Source of the DNA: Candidatus Fermentibacterota bacterium | GTDB lineage: Bacteria; Fermentibacterota; Fermentibacteria; Fermentibacterales; JCC-6 | Assembly (NCBI GenBank): GCA_963845085.1 | Contig: CAWJQI010000005.1 | Span: 192,001 to 256,000, forward strand | DNA: 64,000 bases | Direction: 5' to 3' | Shown: in pieces, positions 43,828 through 51,295 of the stretch | Position numbering within the stretch: position 1 is the stretch's first letter | Layout of the letters: each line of letters starts with the position of its first letter | Position numbers and translations under genes: made by a program | Notes under the pieces: generated by a model | The model's input: only the letters and a program-made list of their open reading frames with translations | What the model was told of the DNA's origin: nothing | The model's database searches: none

Positions 43828-44033
43828 ATTGTTCCCGGCTTCCCTGCCGCGAAAGGCATCGCACTCCGAAATCCCGCTCTCCGCAGCCGTCGGTTCGAAC
43901 CAACCATCGGAAGACGGGGCTGCAGTAAAGCGGGCGCTTTGCTTGCTCTCGAAGTTCCTGTTATTTTAGGTTGTACAACCCGGAACAGCGATTTCACAGC
44001 CCGGGGCAAAATGGAAGGGGAAAAGGGGCCATC

Positions 44034-45152
44034 ATGAGAAGAAATCTGGTCTTGATAACAGCCTTGCTTGTGTTCCTTGCATTCGGGGGATGCGGCAAAC
44101 CGGCGGTTGAGATCACCGCTCCCGAATCAGCCAATGCCGGTTCGGAAATCTCCATCTCCTGGACCGGAACCGTGGCGGAAGGCGACAAGATAGTCGTCCG
44201 CGCCATCGGTGCAACCGAGGGTACCGAGGTCGAGGCGGTCGCCAATTCCGCAAGCGTAACCCTCCCGCTTGAAGACGGCGCCTTCGAGATCGTCTACATG
44301 AACGCAGAGGGTGAAGCCGTCGCCACGAAGGCTCTCACCATCAATGCGAACACCTACACCTTCGAATTCCCCGAGGAAGTCATTGCGGGTTCCTGGTTCG
44401 AAGTCGCATGGACCGGCCCCGACAACGCCAGCGATTACATCACCATTGTTCCCGAGGGCGCCGCCGAAGGCGAGTGGCTTAGCTATTCCTACACCGCAGA
44501 CGGCAGCCCCGTTCAGATTCAGGCTCCTCTTGAGCCGGGTGTGTACGAGGTCCGTTATTCGACCGAGCAGGTCTACCCCAACCCCACCCTTTTCAGCAAG
44601 ACAATCACAGTCATTTCAACCGATTACGCAGTGATGGCCCCCGCCGAGATCACTGCCGGATCTGACTTCCAGGTCGCCTGGCTCGGAGCCGACAACCCCG
44701 GCGATTACATCACGATCGTCCCGGTGGGCACCCCCGAGGGCGAATGGCTCGACTACGACTACACGGTTAACGGCAACCCCTGCACCATCACCGCTCCGGC
44801 CGAACCGGGCGAGTACGAGGTCAGGTATTCATCCGAGCAGGTCACACCGAATCCCACGCTTGCCACCACCCATGTGACCGTTATCCCGGCTGAGATAACG
44901 CTCACCGCTCCCGAATCGGTGCCTGCAGGCTCGGCATTCGAGGTCACATGGACCGGACCCAACGGCGCTGAAGACTACCTCACGATAGTGCCGGCCGGCT
45001 CTCCCGAAGGAACCTATACAAGCTACGCCTACACCTCCTCGGGCAGCCCCCTCTCGCTCGACGCCCCCGCGACACCGGGCGAATACGAGATCTGGTACGC
45101 CTCCGACAGGGTTGCGGGTACATTTGCCAGCATCCCCATTACGGTGGAGTAG
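44034..45152 (+). CDS. Lipoprotein with tandem Ig-like repeats
   Basis: Lipobox FGGC. Three to four ~95-aa repeats AG(S)xFxVxWxG...DY(I/L)TIVPxG..EG...AP..PGxYE. Confidence 0.8.
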   Translation: MRRNLVLITALLVFLAFGGCGKPAVEITAPESANAGSEISISWTGTVAEGDKIVVRAIGATEGTEVEAVANSASVTLPLEDGAFEIVYMNAEGEAVATKALTINANTYTFEFPEEVIAGSWFEVAWTGPDNASDYITIVPEGAAEGEWLSYSYTADGSPVQIQAPLEPGVYEVRYSTEQVYPNPTLFSKTITVISTDYAVMAPAEITAGSDFQVAWLGADNPGDYITIVPVGTPEGEWLDYDYTVNGNPCTITAPAEPGEYEVRYSSEQVTPNPTLATTHVTVIPAEITLTAPESVPAGSAFEVTWTGPNGAEDYLTIVPAGSPEGTYTSYAYTSSGSPLSLDAPATPGEYEIWYASDRVAGTFASIPITVE

Positions 45153-45164
45153 AGCTTTCGCATC

Positions 45165-45200
45165 AAACCCCCGGCGGGCAACCGCCGGGGGTTTTTGTTT
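45165..45200 (+). terminator. Rho-independent terminator (likely bidirectional)
   Basis: AAA-CCCCCGGCGG-GCAA-CCGCCGGGGG-TTTTT. Confidence 0.85.
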
Positions 45201-45218
45201 GGAACGAAACTGTGGCGG

Positions 45219-46335
45219 TCAGATCTCCCCACCCCCGCCCTGTGGGCTCACGCCGTCTGTCTCACCGTAGTAGATCACATTTTCCTCTTCGGGATTGAAC
45301 GGGGCGACCGCAATCGACCCGTGGCCCAGCGCAACGAGCCATCCATCCATCTCCTGTTCATTCCCGACAACTATCTCCAGTTCACGGGACGGTTCGTTCG
45401 CCGGTCCGTAGATGTCGAAACACATGCGCCGAACCGGGCCCCTGCGTACCCAAAGGTCTCCGTTGCTGCTGCAGTAAAGGGACTGGACGATGTTGTGAAG
45501 GGGGTCAGCCTCGAACTCGAACCCGGCCTCACTTCCGGTCCCGCGGATCCAGGCGTTCCTCAGCCTTAGTGTTTCGGATTCCATCTCTTCCTGCGTTTTC
45601 CCGACCGGTGTGGCATCCCCTGAAATTGTCGCCAGATGCTGGTTCTGGAGTGTTACCTGGTTGACCTCGTAAGACTCGGGGCTTATCTCGGAGATGAACA
45701 GGGCTTCCCCGTCGGGAAGGACCGAGAATGCTATCGCTGTCTCCTTGATGTAGACAATGGGATGAAAGCTGTCTCGCCAGTCTTGTGTGAAAGATCGTTT
45801 GCCTTGCCGGGTTTGATGGATCCGATACATCCCAGCTGCAGAGCCTTGTTCCACACCCCTCATCCTCGTCGAAGATGTAGTCGAGCCCTATGAGGCAGCT
45901 GTCAGAAATGGCGATCAGGCGGACAGGCGTGCCGGGACGCAGCGCGCACCCGTTGAAAAGCACCTCGCTGCTGCATTCATACCCGGCGTTATAGAAGAGC
46001 ATTTTCCTGTCGGCGGGGCAATTCAGAATGAAGCCCCCGCCGGGCCTTCCTGCCAGTTCTGTTGGCGCCGTGCATTCAAGGGGACCCTCGCCGATTGACG
46101 ATATCTGCATGAAATGCACACCATCCCTGTAAATGTGAACAGCCCCGGATATCTGATCAAGCACTGCCAGATCACCGTTCTCAAGGTAGCACAGGCTTGC
46201 GATGCCAGCCAGGCCATCTCTCTCGACATCGATTCTTGAGAAGAGCTCCACCGTGGAAAGCTGTTCTTCCGGGACGCGCGCTTTACCGCAACTGCAGGCG
46301 AAAAGCAGCGCAATGAAAAGAATTGGTTTGAGCAT
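45219..46335 (-). pseudogene. 6-bladed beta-propeller-type lipoprotein split by one frameshift near 45774 (decay or sequence error)
   Basis: Lipobox CSCG and GEGPLE in ORF 45529..46335. Protein-like sequence continues in ORF 45219..45863 (DSFHPIVYI...GDLWVRRG) after removing one base. Confidence 0.7.
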
Positions 46336-46361
46336 TGTTTCATCACCGTATCTTCAATTGA

Positions 46362-46396
46362 CCGGCGGACATCATCGAGACGACGATGTCCACCGG
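46362..46396 (-). promoter_or_regulatory. 16-bp RNA hairpin immediately downstream of the Cys-rich peptide gene
   Basis: CCGGUGGACAUCGUCG-UCU-CGAUGAUGUCCGCCGG. It is fully paired on the minus strand (two G-U pairs) but has two A-C mismatches on the plus strand. Confidence 0.7.
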
Positions 46397-46414
46397 CGCA
46401 GCGCCTGGTTTCGA

Positions 46415-46543
46415 TCAGAAGGGCCACATATCAAGGGTCTGGCAAACGCACTGCATGTAGAAGTGTTTGCACTGCTCATCGCACTGCTCGTTATCGAGCA
46501 TTCCTCCGAGGTCCGGCATGGCCGGGGGATTGACAAGAAGCAT
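46415..46543 (-). CDS. Putative Cys-rich RiPP precursor peptide, 42 aa (MLLVNPPAMPDLGGMLDNEQCDEQCKHFYMQCVCQTLDMWPF); not in the supplied ORF track
   Basis: AAAGGAGG RBS 6 nt upstream. Four Cys in the C-terminal half. Directly downstream of a radical SAM/SPASM gene. Confidence 0.65.
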   Translation of the reverse strand: MLLVNPPAMPDLGGMLDNEQCDEQCKHFYMQCVCQTLDMWPF

Positions 46544-47800
46544 TTTTCGCCTCCTTTCCATGTTTCAAGGGTTGCCTGCGAGCCCGATAGTTTTCGAAGA
46601 TGAAGCTCTCGAACCCTTCTTTTGTGAATCTGCATTTGGGGACTCCGCGCTTGAGCAGGGCATCGGGACAACCTCCGCCACATGCGGGCAGCATTCTGCA
46701 GTCTCTGCAGCCTGCCTCGCTGAAGGGGTTCCAACTTTCCCAGACCCTGTAGGATGAAATAAGGCCGCGAAGTGAAAGCTCATGGGTATCGGATGTGTCC
46801 TGCACCTGGTTCCAGCACCTTGCAAGCCTTCCTTCCGGCAGAATCACACAACTCATGAGCGTTGTTGCCGCACAGCCGGGAAACCTCGCATTGAGCCTGT
46901 CGGTGTACAACTCGGCCGTGCAGACCTCCTTTTCCATTTTCATGAGGTTGCTGATCCCTTCGGAAAAGCTTTTCCGATGTTCATAGGTTGTGGGGGCGCG
47001 GTACACGTGTATGTTCTCATCGGTCGCGATCCCACGCCTGAATTCTTCATAGTCGAACTCGTATCCCCCATCGATGTTAACCCTTACCAGAACCTTCATG
47101 TGACGGGCTGCCGTTTTGATGTTTTGGACGACCCTTTCGAAGGTTCCCCTGCCGTCTTTTGTGGTTCGCCTTGTGTCGTGCACATGCGCCGGCCCGTCAA
47201 GCGTGATCTGTGCTGCCGTCACGCCTGCTTCGTGAAGCGAGACCGAAAGCGGCTCGTCGAGCAGATAGCCGTTCGTGACAAGCATCGCATTCGCTTTCCG
47301 GTCAGCATTTCTCACCGCCGCCAGCACCGCAAGGCAAACCCCGGGGTAAAGCAGAGGCTCTCCGCCGTAAAGTGTGGTGTGAATGCCCGCGGGCCTTGCA
47401 GCATCAATCAATTCAACAATGCCGTTGATGACTTCGTCGCTGAGGACTGCGTCGTTCTTCTCGCCCTCGCTCTGTATGCAGTAGGAACAGCTGAAATTGC
47501 ATCTGCGTGTGATGACCGCTGGTCATCCGCATCTCTCCTGCGAACCTCGCCGACTTCATGAGTGTTTCGAGGTAGTACCTCTCATCGAAACCGTCGGGGA
47601 TCACAAATCCCGCTGATTCAAGGGCGTCAAGGGTTGCGCCGTCGCATAGCGGAGGCGTCGAATTCACCCCCGGGTTCGAGAAGCAGCGCTTCCAGGTACC
47701 CGTGATCGCCGTCGAGTTCGAACATGCCCCCGGTGAACCCGTTGAAGATCACGTGAACGCCGTTTCGGCGAACAGACCAGTTGTACCGCGAGTTTTTCAC
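46491..47800 (-). pseudogene. Radical SAM/SPASM peptide maturase split by two frameshifts (~47644-47670 and ~47520)
   Basis: GTG-KNSRYN...VIFNGFTG N-terminus, then LDALESAGFVI, then TRRCNFSCSYC, YGGEPLL, VTNGYLL, QITLDG, and SPASM C...CW...CRDCRMLPACGGGCP...C. Confidence 0.85.
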
Positions 47801-47949
47801 GTGTGATCCAGATAAATCATGGGCCGAATGTGGCGCATGAAACGTTTCGCAATACCAATGGTTTCATAGTCATTTACCCCAATTCTTTAGCAAGGGGCGC
47901 TCAGATGCCTGCTTCCGTATTCATAAGTACGGCCCGGACGGGCCGTTTT

Positions 47950-50900
47950 TCAAGAGGGTTCGTTCCCCGAATCCAGTGTCACCCTGACCATCCTGGCAAG
48001 CTCGGTACCGGAGAAGGGCTTCTGGATGAAGTTGACACCCTCGTTCAGAACTCCCTCGTTTGCTATGGCGTCTGCGGTATAGCCCGACATGAAAAGGCAG
48101 CGGATGCCCGGAAACAATTCCGATAGGCGCCCCGCAAGAACGGCGCCGTTCATGCCCGGCATGACCACGTCGGTGATGAGCATGTGAACCTGTCCGTCGT
48201 ATCTTCCGGCCAGTGCAATGGCCTGCTCGGGGCTGTCTGCTGTAAGGACGCTGTATCCCAGCCGCTCGAGCATTATCCGTGTCACGTCGAGTATCGCACC
48301 CTCATCTTCAACGACAAGGACGGTTTCATGGCCGTGAACGGTGGTCAGGGTGCGGGACCTTGCAGGGGGGGGAGGCGTCGTTCCATGACGGGGAAGACAG
48401 ACCCTGAACGTGCTGCCCTTGCCGGGTTCGCTGCGCACTTCAATGTAGCCCTTGTTCTGCTTCACGATCCCGTAGACCGTTGCAAGCCCGAGCCCGGTTC
48501 CCTTGCCCTGCTCCTTGGTCGTGAAGAACGGTTCGAAAAGATGCGAAAGCATGGCTGTGTCCATGCCGCACCCGTTGTCTCCCACCGAGAGCAGCGCGTA
48601 CTCGCCCGGGATCGAGCCCGGATGCGCCGAGCAGAAAACTTCGTCGAATGTCACGGCTCCCGTCTCTATCGTTATCCTGCCGGATTCTCCAACGGCATCC
48701 CGGGCGTTCACGCAAAGGTTCGTAAGGATCTGGTCAATCTGGGACGGGTCCATCCGTACGGGACCAAGGCCGGAGGCCGGGTTCCAGACCAGTTCGATGT
48801 TCTCGCCTATGAGACGGCGAAGCATCCGAAGCATGCCGTCCACCGTCTGGTTCAGATCAAGCACTTTGGGAGCGATGGTCTGTTTCCGGGCGAACGCCAG
48901 GAGCTGCCGGGTGAGATCGGCCGACCGTTCGGCCGCCTTTTTTATCTCCTCCAGATCGGATGCGAGGGGATGGTCGCGCTCCACGCGTTCAAGGGCGAAC
49001 TCGGCATGGCCGAGTATCGCTCCGAGCATGTTGTTGAAATCATGCGCAACGCCTCCAGCAAGTCTCCCGACTGAATCCATCTTCTGTGCCTGATAAAGCT
49101 GCTCCTGAAGAATCCCGCGTTCCTCCTCGGCCAACACCCTGTCCGTTATGTCGGTGGTGAGGATCACAACCCTTTCAACAACCCCTTCGTTGTTCGTGAT
49201 CCCGTTGAAGTGCTGGCTGATGATCCGGCGCTGTCCGGTGATGGGGTGCCTTGAATTGGTCTGCATCTCCGAGATGAAGAAATCCCCGCCCCTGGTGAAC
49301 ACCCGTCTCACATCCTCGTGAAAACGGTGGAAGTAGCTGTCCCGTTCATCGAAAGCCAGCATCTCCCGCGGGCGCATGTCATGTCTGATCCGTTCCTCCG
49401 TCATTCCCCAGAGGTTCTCCCAGGCCTTGTTGTAAAGCAGAAGCTGCCCGGTCGGCGACCGGACGGATATGCCGGTACGGGAGTTGTCGATGACCGTGCG
49501 GGCGAGGCTCTCGCTCTGTTGCAGAGCGTCTTCTGCCCTGCCACGCATTATGGCATGGATGATCATCGAACCGAGCAGGTTGAGTGAATCCATTTCAACC
49601 TCGGTCCAGACCCGCTCTGCCCTGATCGCATCGAACCCGAGGAACCCGACAAGGCTTCCTTCCAGCACCATGGGGATCACCATGAGGGATTTGACGCCCT
49701 GCCTCTGAAGGATCTCCTTCTCACAGGCAGCCTGCTCCGGAAGTTCGGAGACCGACGGGACATTGATGATCCTCCCCTCGACGAACCGCTCAATCCACCA
49801 TGGCAGTGGGCATTCCGGCATGTCCCTCGAACCCGGATCAAGGGGCTGGATTGATTCGGCGCACCATTCATGCGTCTTTTCCATCCTTGCGGAGTTGTTC
49901 CGGAACAGAAACACGTAGGCGCGGTCGGCGCCGACAAACGACCCGATGGAGTTGAGCGCCCTCTGAATGACCGCATCGGTGAGGGCGGGCGTCTCCCTTA
50001 TGAACTCGGAGGATGCAACAGAGATGAGCTTTTGCAGCTCGACATGCCGCGAGATTGTTTCCTGTGCCTTTCTGCGCTCAGTAATGTCATGCAGAACCAC
50101 CAGTGTTCCGATGTGCTTCCCTCCCGGTGTGACCAATGTCGTCCTGGAAGCGCTGAAAACGTTGTTTCCGAGAACAATGTCTCCCTTGTCGGAGCCGTCC
50201 GTGAAGAATTCGGAAGCCGGAACCGTGTGCACGGACATGACGCCTTCTGCGGAAACGCTGAATGCGCTCGAGGCGAGAAGCGTTTTGGCCCCCGGGTTGC
50301 TGCTGAGAAGCCTTGACCGCCTGTCGAGCACGAAAACGGCGTCGGGCAGGTTCTCGAACAACACATCCATCGCGAACGGCGTTATGTCGAAAAGCTTCAC
50401 GGTCATTATGCCGATGTAGAAGACCAGCCCGGTTCCCATGAAGGCGACCGGGGTAAGGTCGAGAAACCCGAAGGGCTTGTAGCCGAGGATGAATGCCAGG
50501 TGGGAGATGTAAGGAAGAAGGGCGCCCGCTATGATGAAGGCAACGCGTGCCCTGCTGGGCGACGTATTCCAGAGAAACATCCGGATCAGCAGCGCCAGCC
50601 CCATGGCGACCATCAGGTTGGAGTAGACGATGTGCTGCCACCAGAAAAAGCCGGGACGGTACGTCAGAAAGCTCTGCGTTCCCGACATTCCGAGCGATAC
50701 GGACGAGTAGAAGAGATGGTGCATGTCGTTGGTGGCCAGCATGATAACGGAGATGGCAGGAACGGTGAAGAACAGCGCGACGGCAAGTGGAGAGCGCCTT
50801 CGCACCGATCCTGAATACCTTGCTGCGAACATGAGCCAGAGGACGGGGGAAGCCGCGACCCCAAGGTAGGCCGGAACGAGAAGGGCTTTTTTGTCGGCAA

Positions 50901-51075
50901 GGTCGGGGGAAGAGAGCGAAAGGCCGTAGAAGAGCGACCACAGCGTGACAGCCGCAAGCAGGCGGGCCAGCGCAGAGGCCGCCGGGTTCTGTCTTCTTTT
51001 CCACGCATGGAAGCACAACAGCAGTGAGGCTATCGTGGATCCCAGCAGCAGCATGCCGGCCGGTTGCAGAGTCAT
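47950..51075 (-). CDS. Hybrid sensor histidine kinase/response regulator (7TM-PAS-GAF-PAS-HisKA-HATPase-REC)
   Basis: 7TM region with ATNDMHHLFY and DLTP. GRLAGGVAHDFNNML, NLCVNARDA, FEPFFTTK, GTGLGLA, LITDVVMP, FIQKPF. Confidence 0.93.
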   Translation of the reverse strand: MTLQPAGMLLLGSTIASLLLCFHAWKRRQNPAASALARLLAAVTLWSLFYGLSLSSPDLADKKALLVPAYLGVAASPVLWLMFAARYSGSVRRRSPLAVALFFTVPAISVIMLATNDMHHLFYSSVSLGMSGTQSFLTYRPGFFWWQHIVYSNLMVAMGLALLIRMFLWNTSPSRARVAFIIAGALLPYISHLAFILGYKPFGFLDLTPVAFMGTGLVFYIGIMTVKLFDITPFAMDVLFENLPDAVFVLDRRSRLLSSNPGAKTLLASSAFSVSAEGVMSVHTVPASEFFTDGSDKGDIVLGNNVFSASRTTLVTPGGKHIGTLVVLHDITERRKAQETISRHVELQKLISVASSEFIRETPALTDAVIQRALNSIGSFVGADRAYVFLFRNNSARMEKTHEWCAESIQPLDPGSRDMPECPLPWWIERFVEGRIINVPSVSELPEQAACEKEILQRQGVKSLMVIPMVLEGSLVGFLGFDAIRAERVWTEVEMDSLNLLGSMIIHAIMRGRAEDALQQSESLARTVIDNSRTGISVRSPTGQLLLYNKAWENLWGMTEERIRHDMRPREMLAFDERDSYFHRFHEDVRRVFTRGGDFFISEMQTNSRHPITGQRRIISQHFNGITNNEGVVERVVILTTDITDRVLAEEERGILQEQLYQAQKMDSVGRLAGGVAHDFNNMLGAILGHAEFALERVERDHPLASDLEEIKKAAERSADLTRQLLAFARKQTIAPKVLDLNQTVDGMLRMLRRLIGENIELVWNPASGLGPVRMDPSQIDQILTNLCVNARDAVGESGRITIETGAVTFDEVFCSAHPGSIPGEYALLSVGDNGCGMDTAMLSHLFEPFFTTKEQGKGTGLGLATVYGIVKQNKGYIEVRSEPGKGSTFRVCLPRHGTTPPPPARSRTLTTVHGHETVLVVEDEGAILDVTRIMLERLGYSVLTADSPEQAIALAGRYDGQVHMLITDVVMPGMNGAVLAGRLSELFPGIRCLFMSGYTADAIANEGVLNEGVNFIQKPFSGTELARMVRVTLDSGNEPS

Positions 51076-51295
51076 CAGGGATTGCCCTCCAGAAATTCCT
51101 GTGCCAGGACAGTAGCATACACTCTGCACCCGCGGCGTACAATCGGAGCTCCCGCCGGTGCAACAAGAGCATGGAGTGATGCAGGCATCCTGATCAGGGC
51201 TTTCAACAAGGTCTGAAGGACAGACCGTGGCCGTGCCGACAGCCGTATTGTCCTGGATCGCTTATTGACGGCCGGCTTGCGGGCGGCAGCCGGTT

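Follow-up and report, generated by a model that had tools for sequence, protein, structure and literature searches.

The nearest described family to the maturase analysed here is TIGR04463, whose characterised ranthisynthase, CrpC from Methanococcus voltae, installs ranthionines in Cys-x-x-acceptor motifs according to PMC13692751, where the enzyme is given a predicted RRE at residues 1–92, an AuxI site formed by C333/C352/C403 and an AuxII site formed by C390/C393/C399/C422. The substrates seen for this family are large repeat proteins (CrpA of about 29 kDa and the 680-aa CefA). Two further points of reference are the CteB/SCIFF system (PDB 5WGG, 5WHY) with its RRE-rSAM-SPASM architecture and short, highly conserved Cys-rich precursor, and the PapB/freyrasin system with its PapA-type CxxxD motifs. 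A literature search confined largely to non-subscription journals found no chemistry for the Clo7bot, CefB, FlmE/OhkG and geopeptide families; among the matches listed there was nothing relevant on CefB, geopeptide, FibroRumin or CcpM, and nothing joining FlmE with radical SAM. For the Fermentibacterota it produced passing mentions and no RiPP study.

The window, i.e., the whole stretch of 64,000 nucleotides that was analysed, carries on its minus strand a radical SAM/SPASM gene, a short peptide gene and a lipoprotein gene, with a hairpin following the peptide gene (Table 1). An earlier note on this DNA had read the locus as a radical SAM/SPASM maturase with an RRE, paired with a Cys-rich precursor encoded beside it, in a lineage that has been little studied, and this proposal was supported. 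The sequence features it listed were all located on the minus strand at the positions it gave: translation placed the start of the N-terminal region KNSRYN...IFNGFTG at the GTG codon 47800, CNFSCSYC lies at 47501–47478, the SPASM cysteines are encoded at 46874–46632, and the unannotated ORF behind the ribosome-binding site corresponds exactly to the 42-aa sequence quoted. It was also correct that no transporter is adjacent at this locus. Intact orthologous cassettes with identical gene order were found in two genomes of the same genus (G003, locus L031, and G005, locus L032), and the cassette is genuine. A hybrid histidine kinase encoded upstream (47950–51129) was considered as a further member and rejected, being missing beside both orthologous cassettes. 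The Rfam search of the window gave no matches, and the sigma-70 promoter scan gave no sites, compared with 1.2 in shuffled sequences.

Table 1. Positions of the cassette features in the window.
Feature	Position	Strand	Remarks
Maturase, piece 1	47651..47800	-	Starts with GTG; covers the three beta strands and first helix of the predicted RRE (its first half)
Maturase, piece 2	47521..47649	-	Remainder of the predicted RRE and linker
Maturase, piece 3	46491..47519	-	Radical SAM domain and seven-cysteine SPASM; final codons overlap the peptide gene
Ribosome-binding site of the peptide gene, AAAGGAGG	46550..46557	-
Gene of the 42-aa precursor peptide	46415..46543	-
Stem-loop between the peptide and lipoprotein genes	46361..46397	-
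Lipoprotein gene, split by one extra base	45219..46335	-	Two frames
13-bp GC-rich terminator hairpin	45165..45194		Separates the cassette from a convergent lipoprotein gene (43971-45152); z about -3.9
Extra bases in the maturase (47650, 47520) and lipoprotein (45773) genes	47650, 47520, 45773		One base each; shift the frame

The radical SAM domain of the maturase was recognised by PF04055 with 75 bits (cut-off 29.5, E 1e-20). Since the Pfam SPASM model gave no score at E ≤ 0.1 on the window maturase, its SPASM assignment comes from the fold and from seven cysteines kept in all 38 aligned relatives, the window enzyme included; a sister enzyme also exceeds the TIGR04085 cut-off (38.2 against 27). 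The window maturase is 55% identical to the G003 and G005 orthologues, and its first piece can be aligned to the N-terminal end of the unbroken L031 enzyme. The AF2 model of the intact orthologue predicts there, at pLDDT 81–93, a domain of three strands (residues 7–12, 15–20 and 26–29) and three helices (31–41, 54–62 and 73–85), and together with the full-length Foldseek match to CteB this bears out the RRE-like domain suggested by the earlier note, as a predicted fold; the N-terminal 87 aa alone gave no phmmer match in the PDB. The thioether synthase CteB was both the top structural match of the orthologue model (458 columns, TM 0.67, E 2e-15) and the top PDB sequence match (E 5e-31), followed in the latter search by the cyclopropane-forming TigE (E 7e-21). 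Despite the common architecture, the structural identity to CteB is 17%.

TIGR04463 was the best-scoring NCBIfam family for the window piece (157.6 bits) and for six of the seven other Fermentibacterota enzymes scanned. The intact orthologues scored 175.9 and 161.4 bits, and the scores as a whole, 145–203 bits, did not reach the cut-off of 525, compared with 589.6 bits for a control member of the family. The match is nearly full-length, including the N-terminal RRE region, and a Cys-rich substrate gene adjoins in both cases. The SPASM cysteines of the orthologue (C309/C328/C377 and C364/C367/C373/C389, spaced C-x18-C...CxxC-x5-C-x3-C) have the same 3+4 layout and spacing as in CrpC. The six catalytic-proximity residues, as defined in PMC10288494, are I/Y/V/T/W/N in the Fermentibacterota enzyme and F/Y/V/T/W/D in the control TIGR04463 member, four of them being identical, in contrast to none of six in CteB (F/F/T/S/H/Q). 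The next-best families scored far under their cut-offs with the intact orthologue: CefB NF038107 (132.8 bits against 600), Clo7bot TIGR04334 (129.7 against 600), FlmE/OhkG NF052473 (115.5 against 500) and the geopeptide TIGR04280 maturase (110.3 against 400), while CteB/SCIFF TIGR03974 gave 56 bits against 425 and the PapB model 88 against 340. As every family score lies far under its cut-off, function is transferred across about 26% identity. The system is to be regarded as a new subfamily within known chemistry, not as a new class, the reaction itself probably belonging to an established type.

A profile search of 70 genomes of the phylum identified 16 loci in 13 genomes, 13 of which loci were evaluable; of the other three, one (G008) is divergent and two are cut off by the end of a contig ahead of where the peptide would lie. 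The conserved peptide that the earlier note expected beside homologous maturases was present directly downstream at all 13, with 34–53 aa and 4–9 Cys, in contrast to the large substrates of TIGR04463. These precursors combine a common N-terminal motif with variable Cys-rich cores: all 17 listed have hydrophobic residues at positions 3 and 4, and Pro7 occurs in 12 of the 17, so that the leader signature "M..VNP" gives way to a family motif M-x-hydrophobic-hydrophobic-x-x-P. The cassette recurs with very different peptides within one phylum of uncultured bacteria. The 14 Fermentibacterota maturases form one clade, separate from TIGR04463 and distinguished from it by a propeller lipoprotein partner, in a quick-search tree with SH-aLRT support only, in which the row L117_r is a wrongly chosen long branch. 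NCBIfam precursor models, those of Clo7bot, CefB, FlmE/OhkG and geopeptide included, had no match among the 12 clade precursors scanned together, nor among those covered by the first NCBIfam scan. A metagenome scan with the close-orthologue alignment recovered only distant enzymes of 21–36% identity (80 kept of 369). Related enzymes of Collinsella, Lachnospiraceae and other Bacillota are accompanied by small Cys-rich peptides that also start with M-x-hydrophobic-hydrophobic-x-x-P.

The window peptide has this leader motif, the core cysteines Cys21, Cys25, Cys32 and Cys34, and invariant KHF and WPF motifs. Its four cysteines come without the SCIFF motif, and it contains one CxxxD only, unlike the PapA-type substrates. 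The explanation that we consider fairly probable as a whole is that the enzyme staples the leader-bound peptide with ranthionine-type thioethers and that the propeller lipoprotein handles the product. The predicted RRE would likely grip the N-terminal leader of the 42-residue peptide. By analogy with CrpC, cleavage of SAM would generate a 5'-deoxyadenosyl radical that abstracts hydrogen from an acceptor residue, and the predicted three-cysteine AuxI cluster with its open iron would hold the substrate thiol. The core cysteines would then likely be joined to nearby residues by sulfur-to-non-alpha-carbon (ranthionine-type) thioethers, each ring causing a loss of 2 Da. The most likely acceptors, again following CrpC, would be the Cys+3 residues (Cys21–Gln24, Cys25–Phe28, Cys32–Gln35 and/or Cys34–Leu37), with Cys34–Asp38 at the PapB spacing as an alternative pairing. 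These positions are guesses, since 14 non-redundant precursors show no excess of Asp/Glu at any of the positions –5 to +5 around Cys (9/67 at i+3, with a background of 11%, and 5/64 at i+4), which also disagrees with the Asp/Glu/Asn acceptors assumed by the earlier note. As the cassette locus has neither an exporter nor a peptidase, export and leader removal would be performed by genes elsewhere. The GG motif pointed out in the earlier note does occur in the window peptide, but is replaced by AD in the G005 orthologue and in four of eight variants; a GG-leader processing site was rejected, the motif being not conserved and the C39 peptidase (PF03412) not being found in this genome (88% complete). 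The C39 domain was likewise missing from the one sister ABC exporter scanned.

The third gene encodes a lipoprotein with a signal peptide, a lipobox-type Cys and a predicted six-bladed beta-propeller of the DUF5128 type. Its two frames gave 51% and 51% identity to the intact orthologue in tblastn, with a switch near 45770. The AF2 model of the orthologue (pLDDT 83.6) had six-bladed NHL propellers as top Foldseek matches, the Atlas score to PF17170 clusters was 0.96, and with the PF17170 model (cut-off 22.9) the orthologues of the window lipoprotein reached 13.8 and 15.7 bits and one sister lipoprotein 27.4 bits. In the proposed mechanism, this co-inherited protein would bind or otherwise handle the product outside the cytoplasmic membrane. 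We consider it possible, although somewhat unlikely, that the lipoprotein is instead a passenger which makes no contact with the peptide and belongs to an expanded family whose members group in these variable islands too. This would fit the presence of about 12 copies in this genome, most of them without a neighbouring peptide or maturase of this family, the tandem extra copies in G003 and G005, and the absence of the lipoprotein at G022 and G027. However, a propeller lipoprotein lies inside the fetched locus at 11 of the 13 evaluable loci, compared with roughly 4% expected per random 8-kb window (our own estimate from 12 genes in 2.45 Mb, the loci being not independent), it comes immediately after the hairpin and is read from the same strand, and its orthologues turn up with the enzyme at other places in the chromosome. 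The three enzyme pairs separated by the smallest distances correspond to the three closest among the 36 lipoprotein pairs, and over the nine loci compared the distances of the two proteins are uncorrelated (Spearman –0.04, Mantel p 0.57). The lipoprotein may be a receptor, immunity or display partner, as the earlier note suggested; it is linked genetically to the cassette, but its family numbers about 12 copies in this genome. The literature search, from which subscription journals were largely absent, found nothing naming DUF5128 and hence no function to transfer to the lipoprotein; neither did it find a radical SAM/SPASM precursor system with a six-bladed beta-propeller or a ranthipeptide with a beta-propeller lipoprotein.

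The thioether chemistry is likely by analogy: a characterised ranthisynthase with the same 3+4 cysteine layout belongs to the nearest family (PMC13692751), which makes a thioether the leading guess. Less likely, to a degree that makes it doubtful, the enzyme and its substrate would be correctly paired while the product is not a ranthionine: alpha-carbon thioethers of the sactipeptide type, or C-C, C-O or other radical chemistry on aromatics, for which His27, Phe28, Trp40 and Phe42 are the invariant candidates, leaving the cysteines for disulfides or metal binding. The conservation of KHF and WPF in 8/8 peptide variants speaks for such a product, as does the second rank of TigE among the PDB sequence matches. 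Aromatics are also the commonest class at Cys+3 (16/67) and Cys+4 (13/64) across the family, a post hoc count without a significance test, and some sactisynthases resemble ranthisynthases, as stated in PMC10288494. Against it, cysteine is the only residue class that is rich in every precursor of the clade, the arrangement seen here, seven SPASM cysteines and an open AuxI site, is that of thioether synthases (PMC13692751, PMC10352776), and cyclophane-synthase models score far lower (73 bits for YhhB versus 158).

A broader reading, which we offer tentatively and judge unlikely in its entirety, would make the cassette a polymorphic peptide-and-receptor system, in which a phylum-specific TIGR04463-like clade staples hypervariable Cys-rich cores, Cys-to-aromatic side-chain thioethers included, and recognition of the stapled peptide takes place at the cell envelope, through the cognate propeller lipoprotein carried by each mobile cassette. 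If true, this would suggest a role in kin signalling or immunity and provide the first function for DUF5128 propellers, as RiPP-binding proteins. Apart from this reading, the 14 enzymes of one clade, paired with 17 precursors that are short, accessible to synthesis and very unlike one another but have one leader motif, offer a test set for the TIGR04463/Clo7bot/CefB neighbourhood, where the chemistry found described concerns one member only, acting on a large protein; with such precursors, crosslink regiochemistry and substrate tolerance could be read by co-expression. The loci furthermore tie the uncharacterised, genome-expanded DUF5128 lipoproteins to loci of putatively modified peptides and would extend RiPP biosynthesis to the uncultured anaerobic phylum Fermentibacterota.

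To be read through, the maturase and lipoprotein genes of the window require three frame changes, each at a single extra base. Base 47650 was left out of related-strain contigs in three runs (X1, X2, X4), base 47520 in four (X1, X2, X4, X8) and base 45773 in two (X2, X5), the contigs coming from four studies in all. The extra bases are probably assembly errors, since every related-strain contig reported at those sites lacks them. It is quite improbable, in our estimate, that they are real mutations which recently inactivated, in this strain, a cassette genuine in its lineage. Three frameshifts in 2.6 kb do exceed the expected number of about 0.15 (assembly background of 12 in 209 kb, Poisson p about 5e-4), none of the extra bases extends a homopolymer, and the cassette is accessory, with a chromosomal position varying among relatives. 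On the other hand, frameshifts also affect 11 of 188 conserved genes of this assembly, including a 94%-identical gene of the purine-synthesis type, and a second lipoprotein gene carries two shifts. Moreover, the three reading segments have no in-frame stops, the 33 coding changes listed between the cassette and related strains are biased to synonymous ones (23 versus 10 non-synonymous), and the related-strain substitutions in maturase piece 2 are synonymous in that frame. Consensus errors of the assembly are the most likely cause of the three frameshifts. Inactivation in the strain would touch this copy only and could hold alongside the best explanation for the family.

The peptide is 81% and about 70% identical to its same-genus orthologues, with a synonymous bias in its changes: relative to a same-genus orthologue, 15 of the altered codons are synonymous and 8 non-synonymous, and third positions account for 19 of the 27 altered bases, a pattern that indicates purifying selection. 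AGGAGG is kept at both orthologous loci, and at least four Cys occur in only 3 of the 35 genome ORFs of 30–60 aa preceded by this motif, which marks the gene as more than chance. The peptide had no NCBIfam match, falls into only two 90% clusters among 5.8 billion proteins and had no usable Atlas match, which shows neither novelty nor absence. That the small ORF arose by chance, the enzyme acting on some other substrate, is hardly credible: no library recognises the peptide and its gene overlaps the enzyme 3' end in two of three orthologues, but the RBS, start and stop are conserved under synonymous-biased change, conservation is higher in the peptide (81%) than in the enzyme (55%), and a Cys-rich ORF with the shared leader motif is found at 13/13 evaluable loci. 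The conservation of the peptide and the family-wide leader motif have already largely refuted this alternative. Read-through of the peptide TGA as selenocysteine, for which the hairpin would serve as SECIS, was rejected, the G005 orthologue stopping with TAA there.

The hairpin behind the peptide gene has a fold z of –2.9, with 2/200 shuffles folding equally well, and stem-loops of unrelated sequence occupy the same place at G003 (z –2.2) and G005 (z –4.9). The stem-loop likely stabilises the precursor mRNA or attenuates read-through, by which the precursor mRNA would be kept in excess.

The 42-codon ORF beside the frame-split radical SAM gene of the window (see table), suspected in the earlier note to be a hidden Cys-rich peptide gene next to a maturase, is a real gene. 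Intact counterparts of the cassette were found in two genomes of the same genus, G003 and G005, whose enzymes are 55% identical to that of the window and whose peptides likewise have 42 aa. Compared with G003, the peptide was the most conserved element (81% identity against 55% for the enzyme and 51% for the lipoprotein), and its codon changes were biased to synonymous (15, against 8 non-synonymous; third positions took 19 of the 27 base changes); the respective counts against G005 were 10 and 13, and 21 of 40. The RBS, start and stop of the peptide gene were conserved across the orthologues, as was the structure, not the sequence, of the downstream hairpin. A profile search over 5.8 billion proteins returned only two peptide clusters with eight members, their best name being 'hypothetical protein'. 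Four Cys and the motifs NPP, EQC, KHF and WPF were invariant in all eight, while the GG motif, previously singled out, did not hold up, with AD in its place in four of them.

Features of the maturase cassette in the window
Feature	Position	Strand	Remark
Radical SAM gene	47800-46491	minus	GTG start; split by two frame changes
RBS of the 42-codon ORF	46557-46550	minus	AAAGGAGG
42-codon ORF	46543-46415	minus	behind the RBS
Stem-loop	46397-46361	minus	between peptide ORF and lipoprotein gene
Lipoprotein gene	46335-45219	minus	split by one frame change
Terminator hairpin	45165-45194		last element of the cassette order

The C-terminal piece of the enzyme matched Pfam Radical_SAM with 75 bits. The cassette, located in a 2.45 Mb genome (G000; 5 contigs, 88% complete; the window is C5:192001-256000), was unremarkable in its GC content (56.3% against 59.5%; 107 of 950 windows were equally low). 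Its terminator is shared with a convergent gene (43971-45152, plus strand) for a 393-aa lipoprotein with approximately four repeated Ig-like domains and only weak Pfam matches. The maturase is preceded, at a distance of 150 bp, by a hybrid histidine kinase gene (47950-51129, minus strand; HisKA_7TM, PAS, GAF and receiver domains). The paralogous cassette of G000 also has a kinase of this type in front of it; the G003 and G005 orthologues do not.

The frame is shifted by single extra bases at 47650 and 47520 in the enzyme and at 45773 in the lipoprotein. Contigs from eight public runs, representing related strains from four studies (mostly 95–99% alike) and not the source sample, were aligned over 45100-47950. 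The extra base was omitted in three, four and two runs, respectively, with no further indels against these contigs over the region. As a baseline for assembly errors, ORFs of a same-genus genome (420, taken from 400 kb) were compared, giving 188 collinear matches, 11 of which were frameshifted; the 12 shifts found in 209 kb were equally divided between insertions and deletions. With three shifts in 2.6 kb, the cassette exceeds the uniform-background expectation (p about 5e-4), so that the copy in the window may be truly inactivated. However, stops were absent from the reading segments and substitutions against the related strains were synonymous-biased (23 synonymous and 10 non-synonymous among the 33 coding-segment substitutions listed); clustered consensus error was therefore favored over inactivation, and the three extra bases are probably of this origin. 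Approximately 6% of the conserved genes in the whole G000 assembly (11/188) are frameshifted, and at this rate apparent pseudogenes in its other windows need checking against relatives.

A profile of 12 enzymes searched against 70 genomes of the phylum (E ≤ 1e-60) recovered 16 enzyme loci in 13 genomes; ten of the loci had been part of the alignment behind the profile. At two loci the contig stops ahead of the peptide position, so that they were not evaluable, and the divergent locus of genome G008 has a small Cys ORF upstream. All remaining 13 loci carried between one and three intact Cys-rich ORFs (34–53 aa) directly 3' of the enzyme. The 17 peptides are alike at the start only (positions 3 and 4 hydrophobic in 17/17, Pro7 in 12/17) and wholly dissimilar in their cores, a combination that matches the leader/core division of RiPP precursors. 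Remoter enzymes, in Collinsella, Lachnospiraceae and other Bacillota, also have peptides with this start beside them. All 14 Fermentibacterota rows of a 38-enzyme tree (quick maximum-likelihood search) fell into one clade (SH-aLRT 100), of which the literature search found no description, although subscription journals or rSAM compendia in supplementary datasets may list the loci. Since the flanks of both orthologous cassettes (G003 and G005) map to G000 contigs other than that of the window, the cassette is accessory and mobile as a unit.

The AF2 model of the intact orthologous enzyme (pLDDT 79.5, pTM 0.76) had an N-terminus of three strands and three helices (pLDDT 81–93), i.e., the RRE layout, in agreement with the RRE-like region proposed earlier. 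Its best Foldseek match, CteB (5WGG; 458 columns, TM 0.67), was also the best sequence match. Among the NCBIfam models, TIGR04463 ranked top for the window piece and 6/7 other phylum members, followed by Clo7bot, CefB, FlmE/OhkG and geopeptide, all scores being far under cut-off (145–203 against 525 for TIGR04463). CrpC of Methanococcus voltae, a characterised TIGR04463 member, is described in PMC13692751 as having a predicted RRE, three 4Fe-4S clusters and seven SPASM cysteines, which leave an iron of AuxI open, and as installing thioethers (-2 Da each) that were assigned as ranthionines; two crosslinks could be placed within the four-residue motifs CAGM and CPLV, and further ones at CAVD and PCAGD. 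The orthologous enzyme has the same C-x18-C...CxxC-x5-C-x3-C layout, and the full SPASM Cys set read from the window recurred as seven Cys in 38/38 aligned relatives. The six catalytic-proximity residues, as defined in PMC10288494, are F/F/T/S/H/Q in CteB, I/Y/V/T/W/N in this enzyme and F/Y/V/T/W/D in a Methylomagnum enzyme that is a genuine member of TIGR04463; judging from these six positions, the active site appears to resemble TIGR04463, represented by the Methylomagnum member and not by CrpC, more than CteB. The enzyme represents a new subfamily near TIGR04463/Clo7bot/CefB. What the earlier note had observed was thus confirmed, and its interpretation was supported in part. The precursors matched none of the curated models, and by analogy the cassette probably works like a ranthipeptide cluster while falling outside every curated family tried.

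Asp, Glu and Asn, named in the earlier note as thioether acceptors, did not emerge as family-wide acceptors: across 14 non-redundant precursors, D/E occupied 9/67 positions at Cys+3 and 5/64 at Cys+4, against a background of 11%. The commonest class at these offsets, in a post hoc count, was aromatic (16/67 and 13/64, respectively). By analogy with CrpC, the likely rings in the window peptide would be Cys21-Gln24, Cys25-Phe28, and Cys32-Gln35 and/or Cys34-Leu37; alternatively, Cys34 may be linked to Asp38, which fits the PapB spacing.

The lipoprotein orthologue was modeled as a propeller (pLDDT 83.6) with six-bladed NHL domains as best PDB matches, and the Atlas placed it with PF17170/DUF5128 clusters (0.96). 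Of the 13 evaluable loci, 11 had a family member and those of G022 and G027 lacked one; a further three are truncated by contig ends. Because nine proteins from eight of the loci went into the search profile, independent hits are limited to those in the window, G064, G070 and G008. The top three enzyme pairs by identity (68, 49, and 38%) coincided with the top three lipoprotein pairs (55, 38, and 31%), with no overall enzyme–lipoprotein correlation. Approximately 12 lipoprotein paralogues occur in G000, mostly without such a cassette. The lipoprotein is genetically coupled to the cassette. No DUF5128–RiPP link was found in the literature, searched mainly outside subscription journals, and a term search of PMC10352776 on Bacteroidales RiPP clusters gave neither propellers nor lipoproteins. 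Elsewhere in G000, a radical SAM/SPASM gene remnant missing its 5' part (L243:1015-5271; G000:C1:444017-448270, minus) is followed by a small ORF with a strong RBS (start MDWTNPELITL) and two propeller lipoproteins, and looks like a second, decayed peptide–maturase–propeller unit of a different enzyme family. Another propeller lipoprotein lies directly upstream of a further radical SAM/SPASM-like gene (L244:2411-4907; G000:C4:732392-734903), where no obvious precursor was found.

Neither transporter nor protease was present at the cassette locus of the window, as already remarked for the transporter, and an ABC exporter was found at three sister loci. Seven ABC_membrane matches lie elsewhere in G000; the one most similar to the sister-locus exporters shares approximately 34% identity with them. 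Because a C39 peptidase domain was absent from the one sister exporter scanned and Peptidase_C39 had no match in G000 (88% complete), a PCAT/double-glycine route seems unlikely.

The paralogous cassette of G000 (L037:3280-6058; G000:C5:858779-861557, minus) comprises an intact enzyme with 34% identity, a tandem pair of 5-Cys peptides and a propeller lipoprotein. With the G003 counterpart this enzyme shares only 49% identity, against 85–89% for ordinary genes nearby. In genome G007, a fourth precursor copy, apparently frameshifted (L040:5540-5660), precedes three intact Cys-rich peptides and has a strong RBS, the leader motif, an early stop and a Cys core in another frame. In a related-enzyme subclade (L055, L057, L060, L061, L089, and L101), a protein of 250–300 aa whose N-terminus is Tat-like ('RR'), directly upstream in place of a small precursor, suggests a protein substrate. 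At the Collinsella loci (within L068-L124), two Cys-rich precursors (starts MEYIQKP and MDWIQP) lie upstream of a related enzyme and a gene of ABC-exporter size lies downstream; this arrangement is very widespread in Collinsella and accounts for over half of the 80 loci listed.
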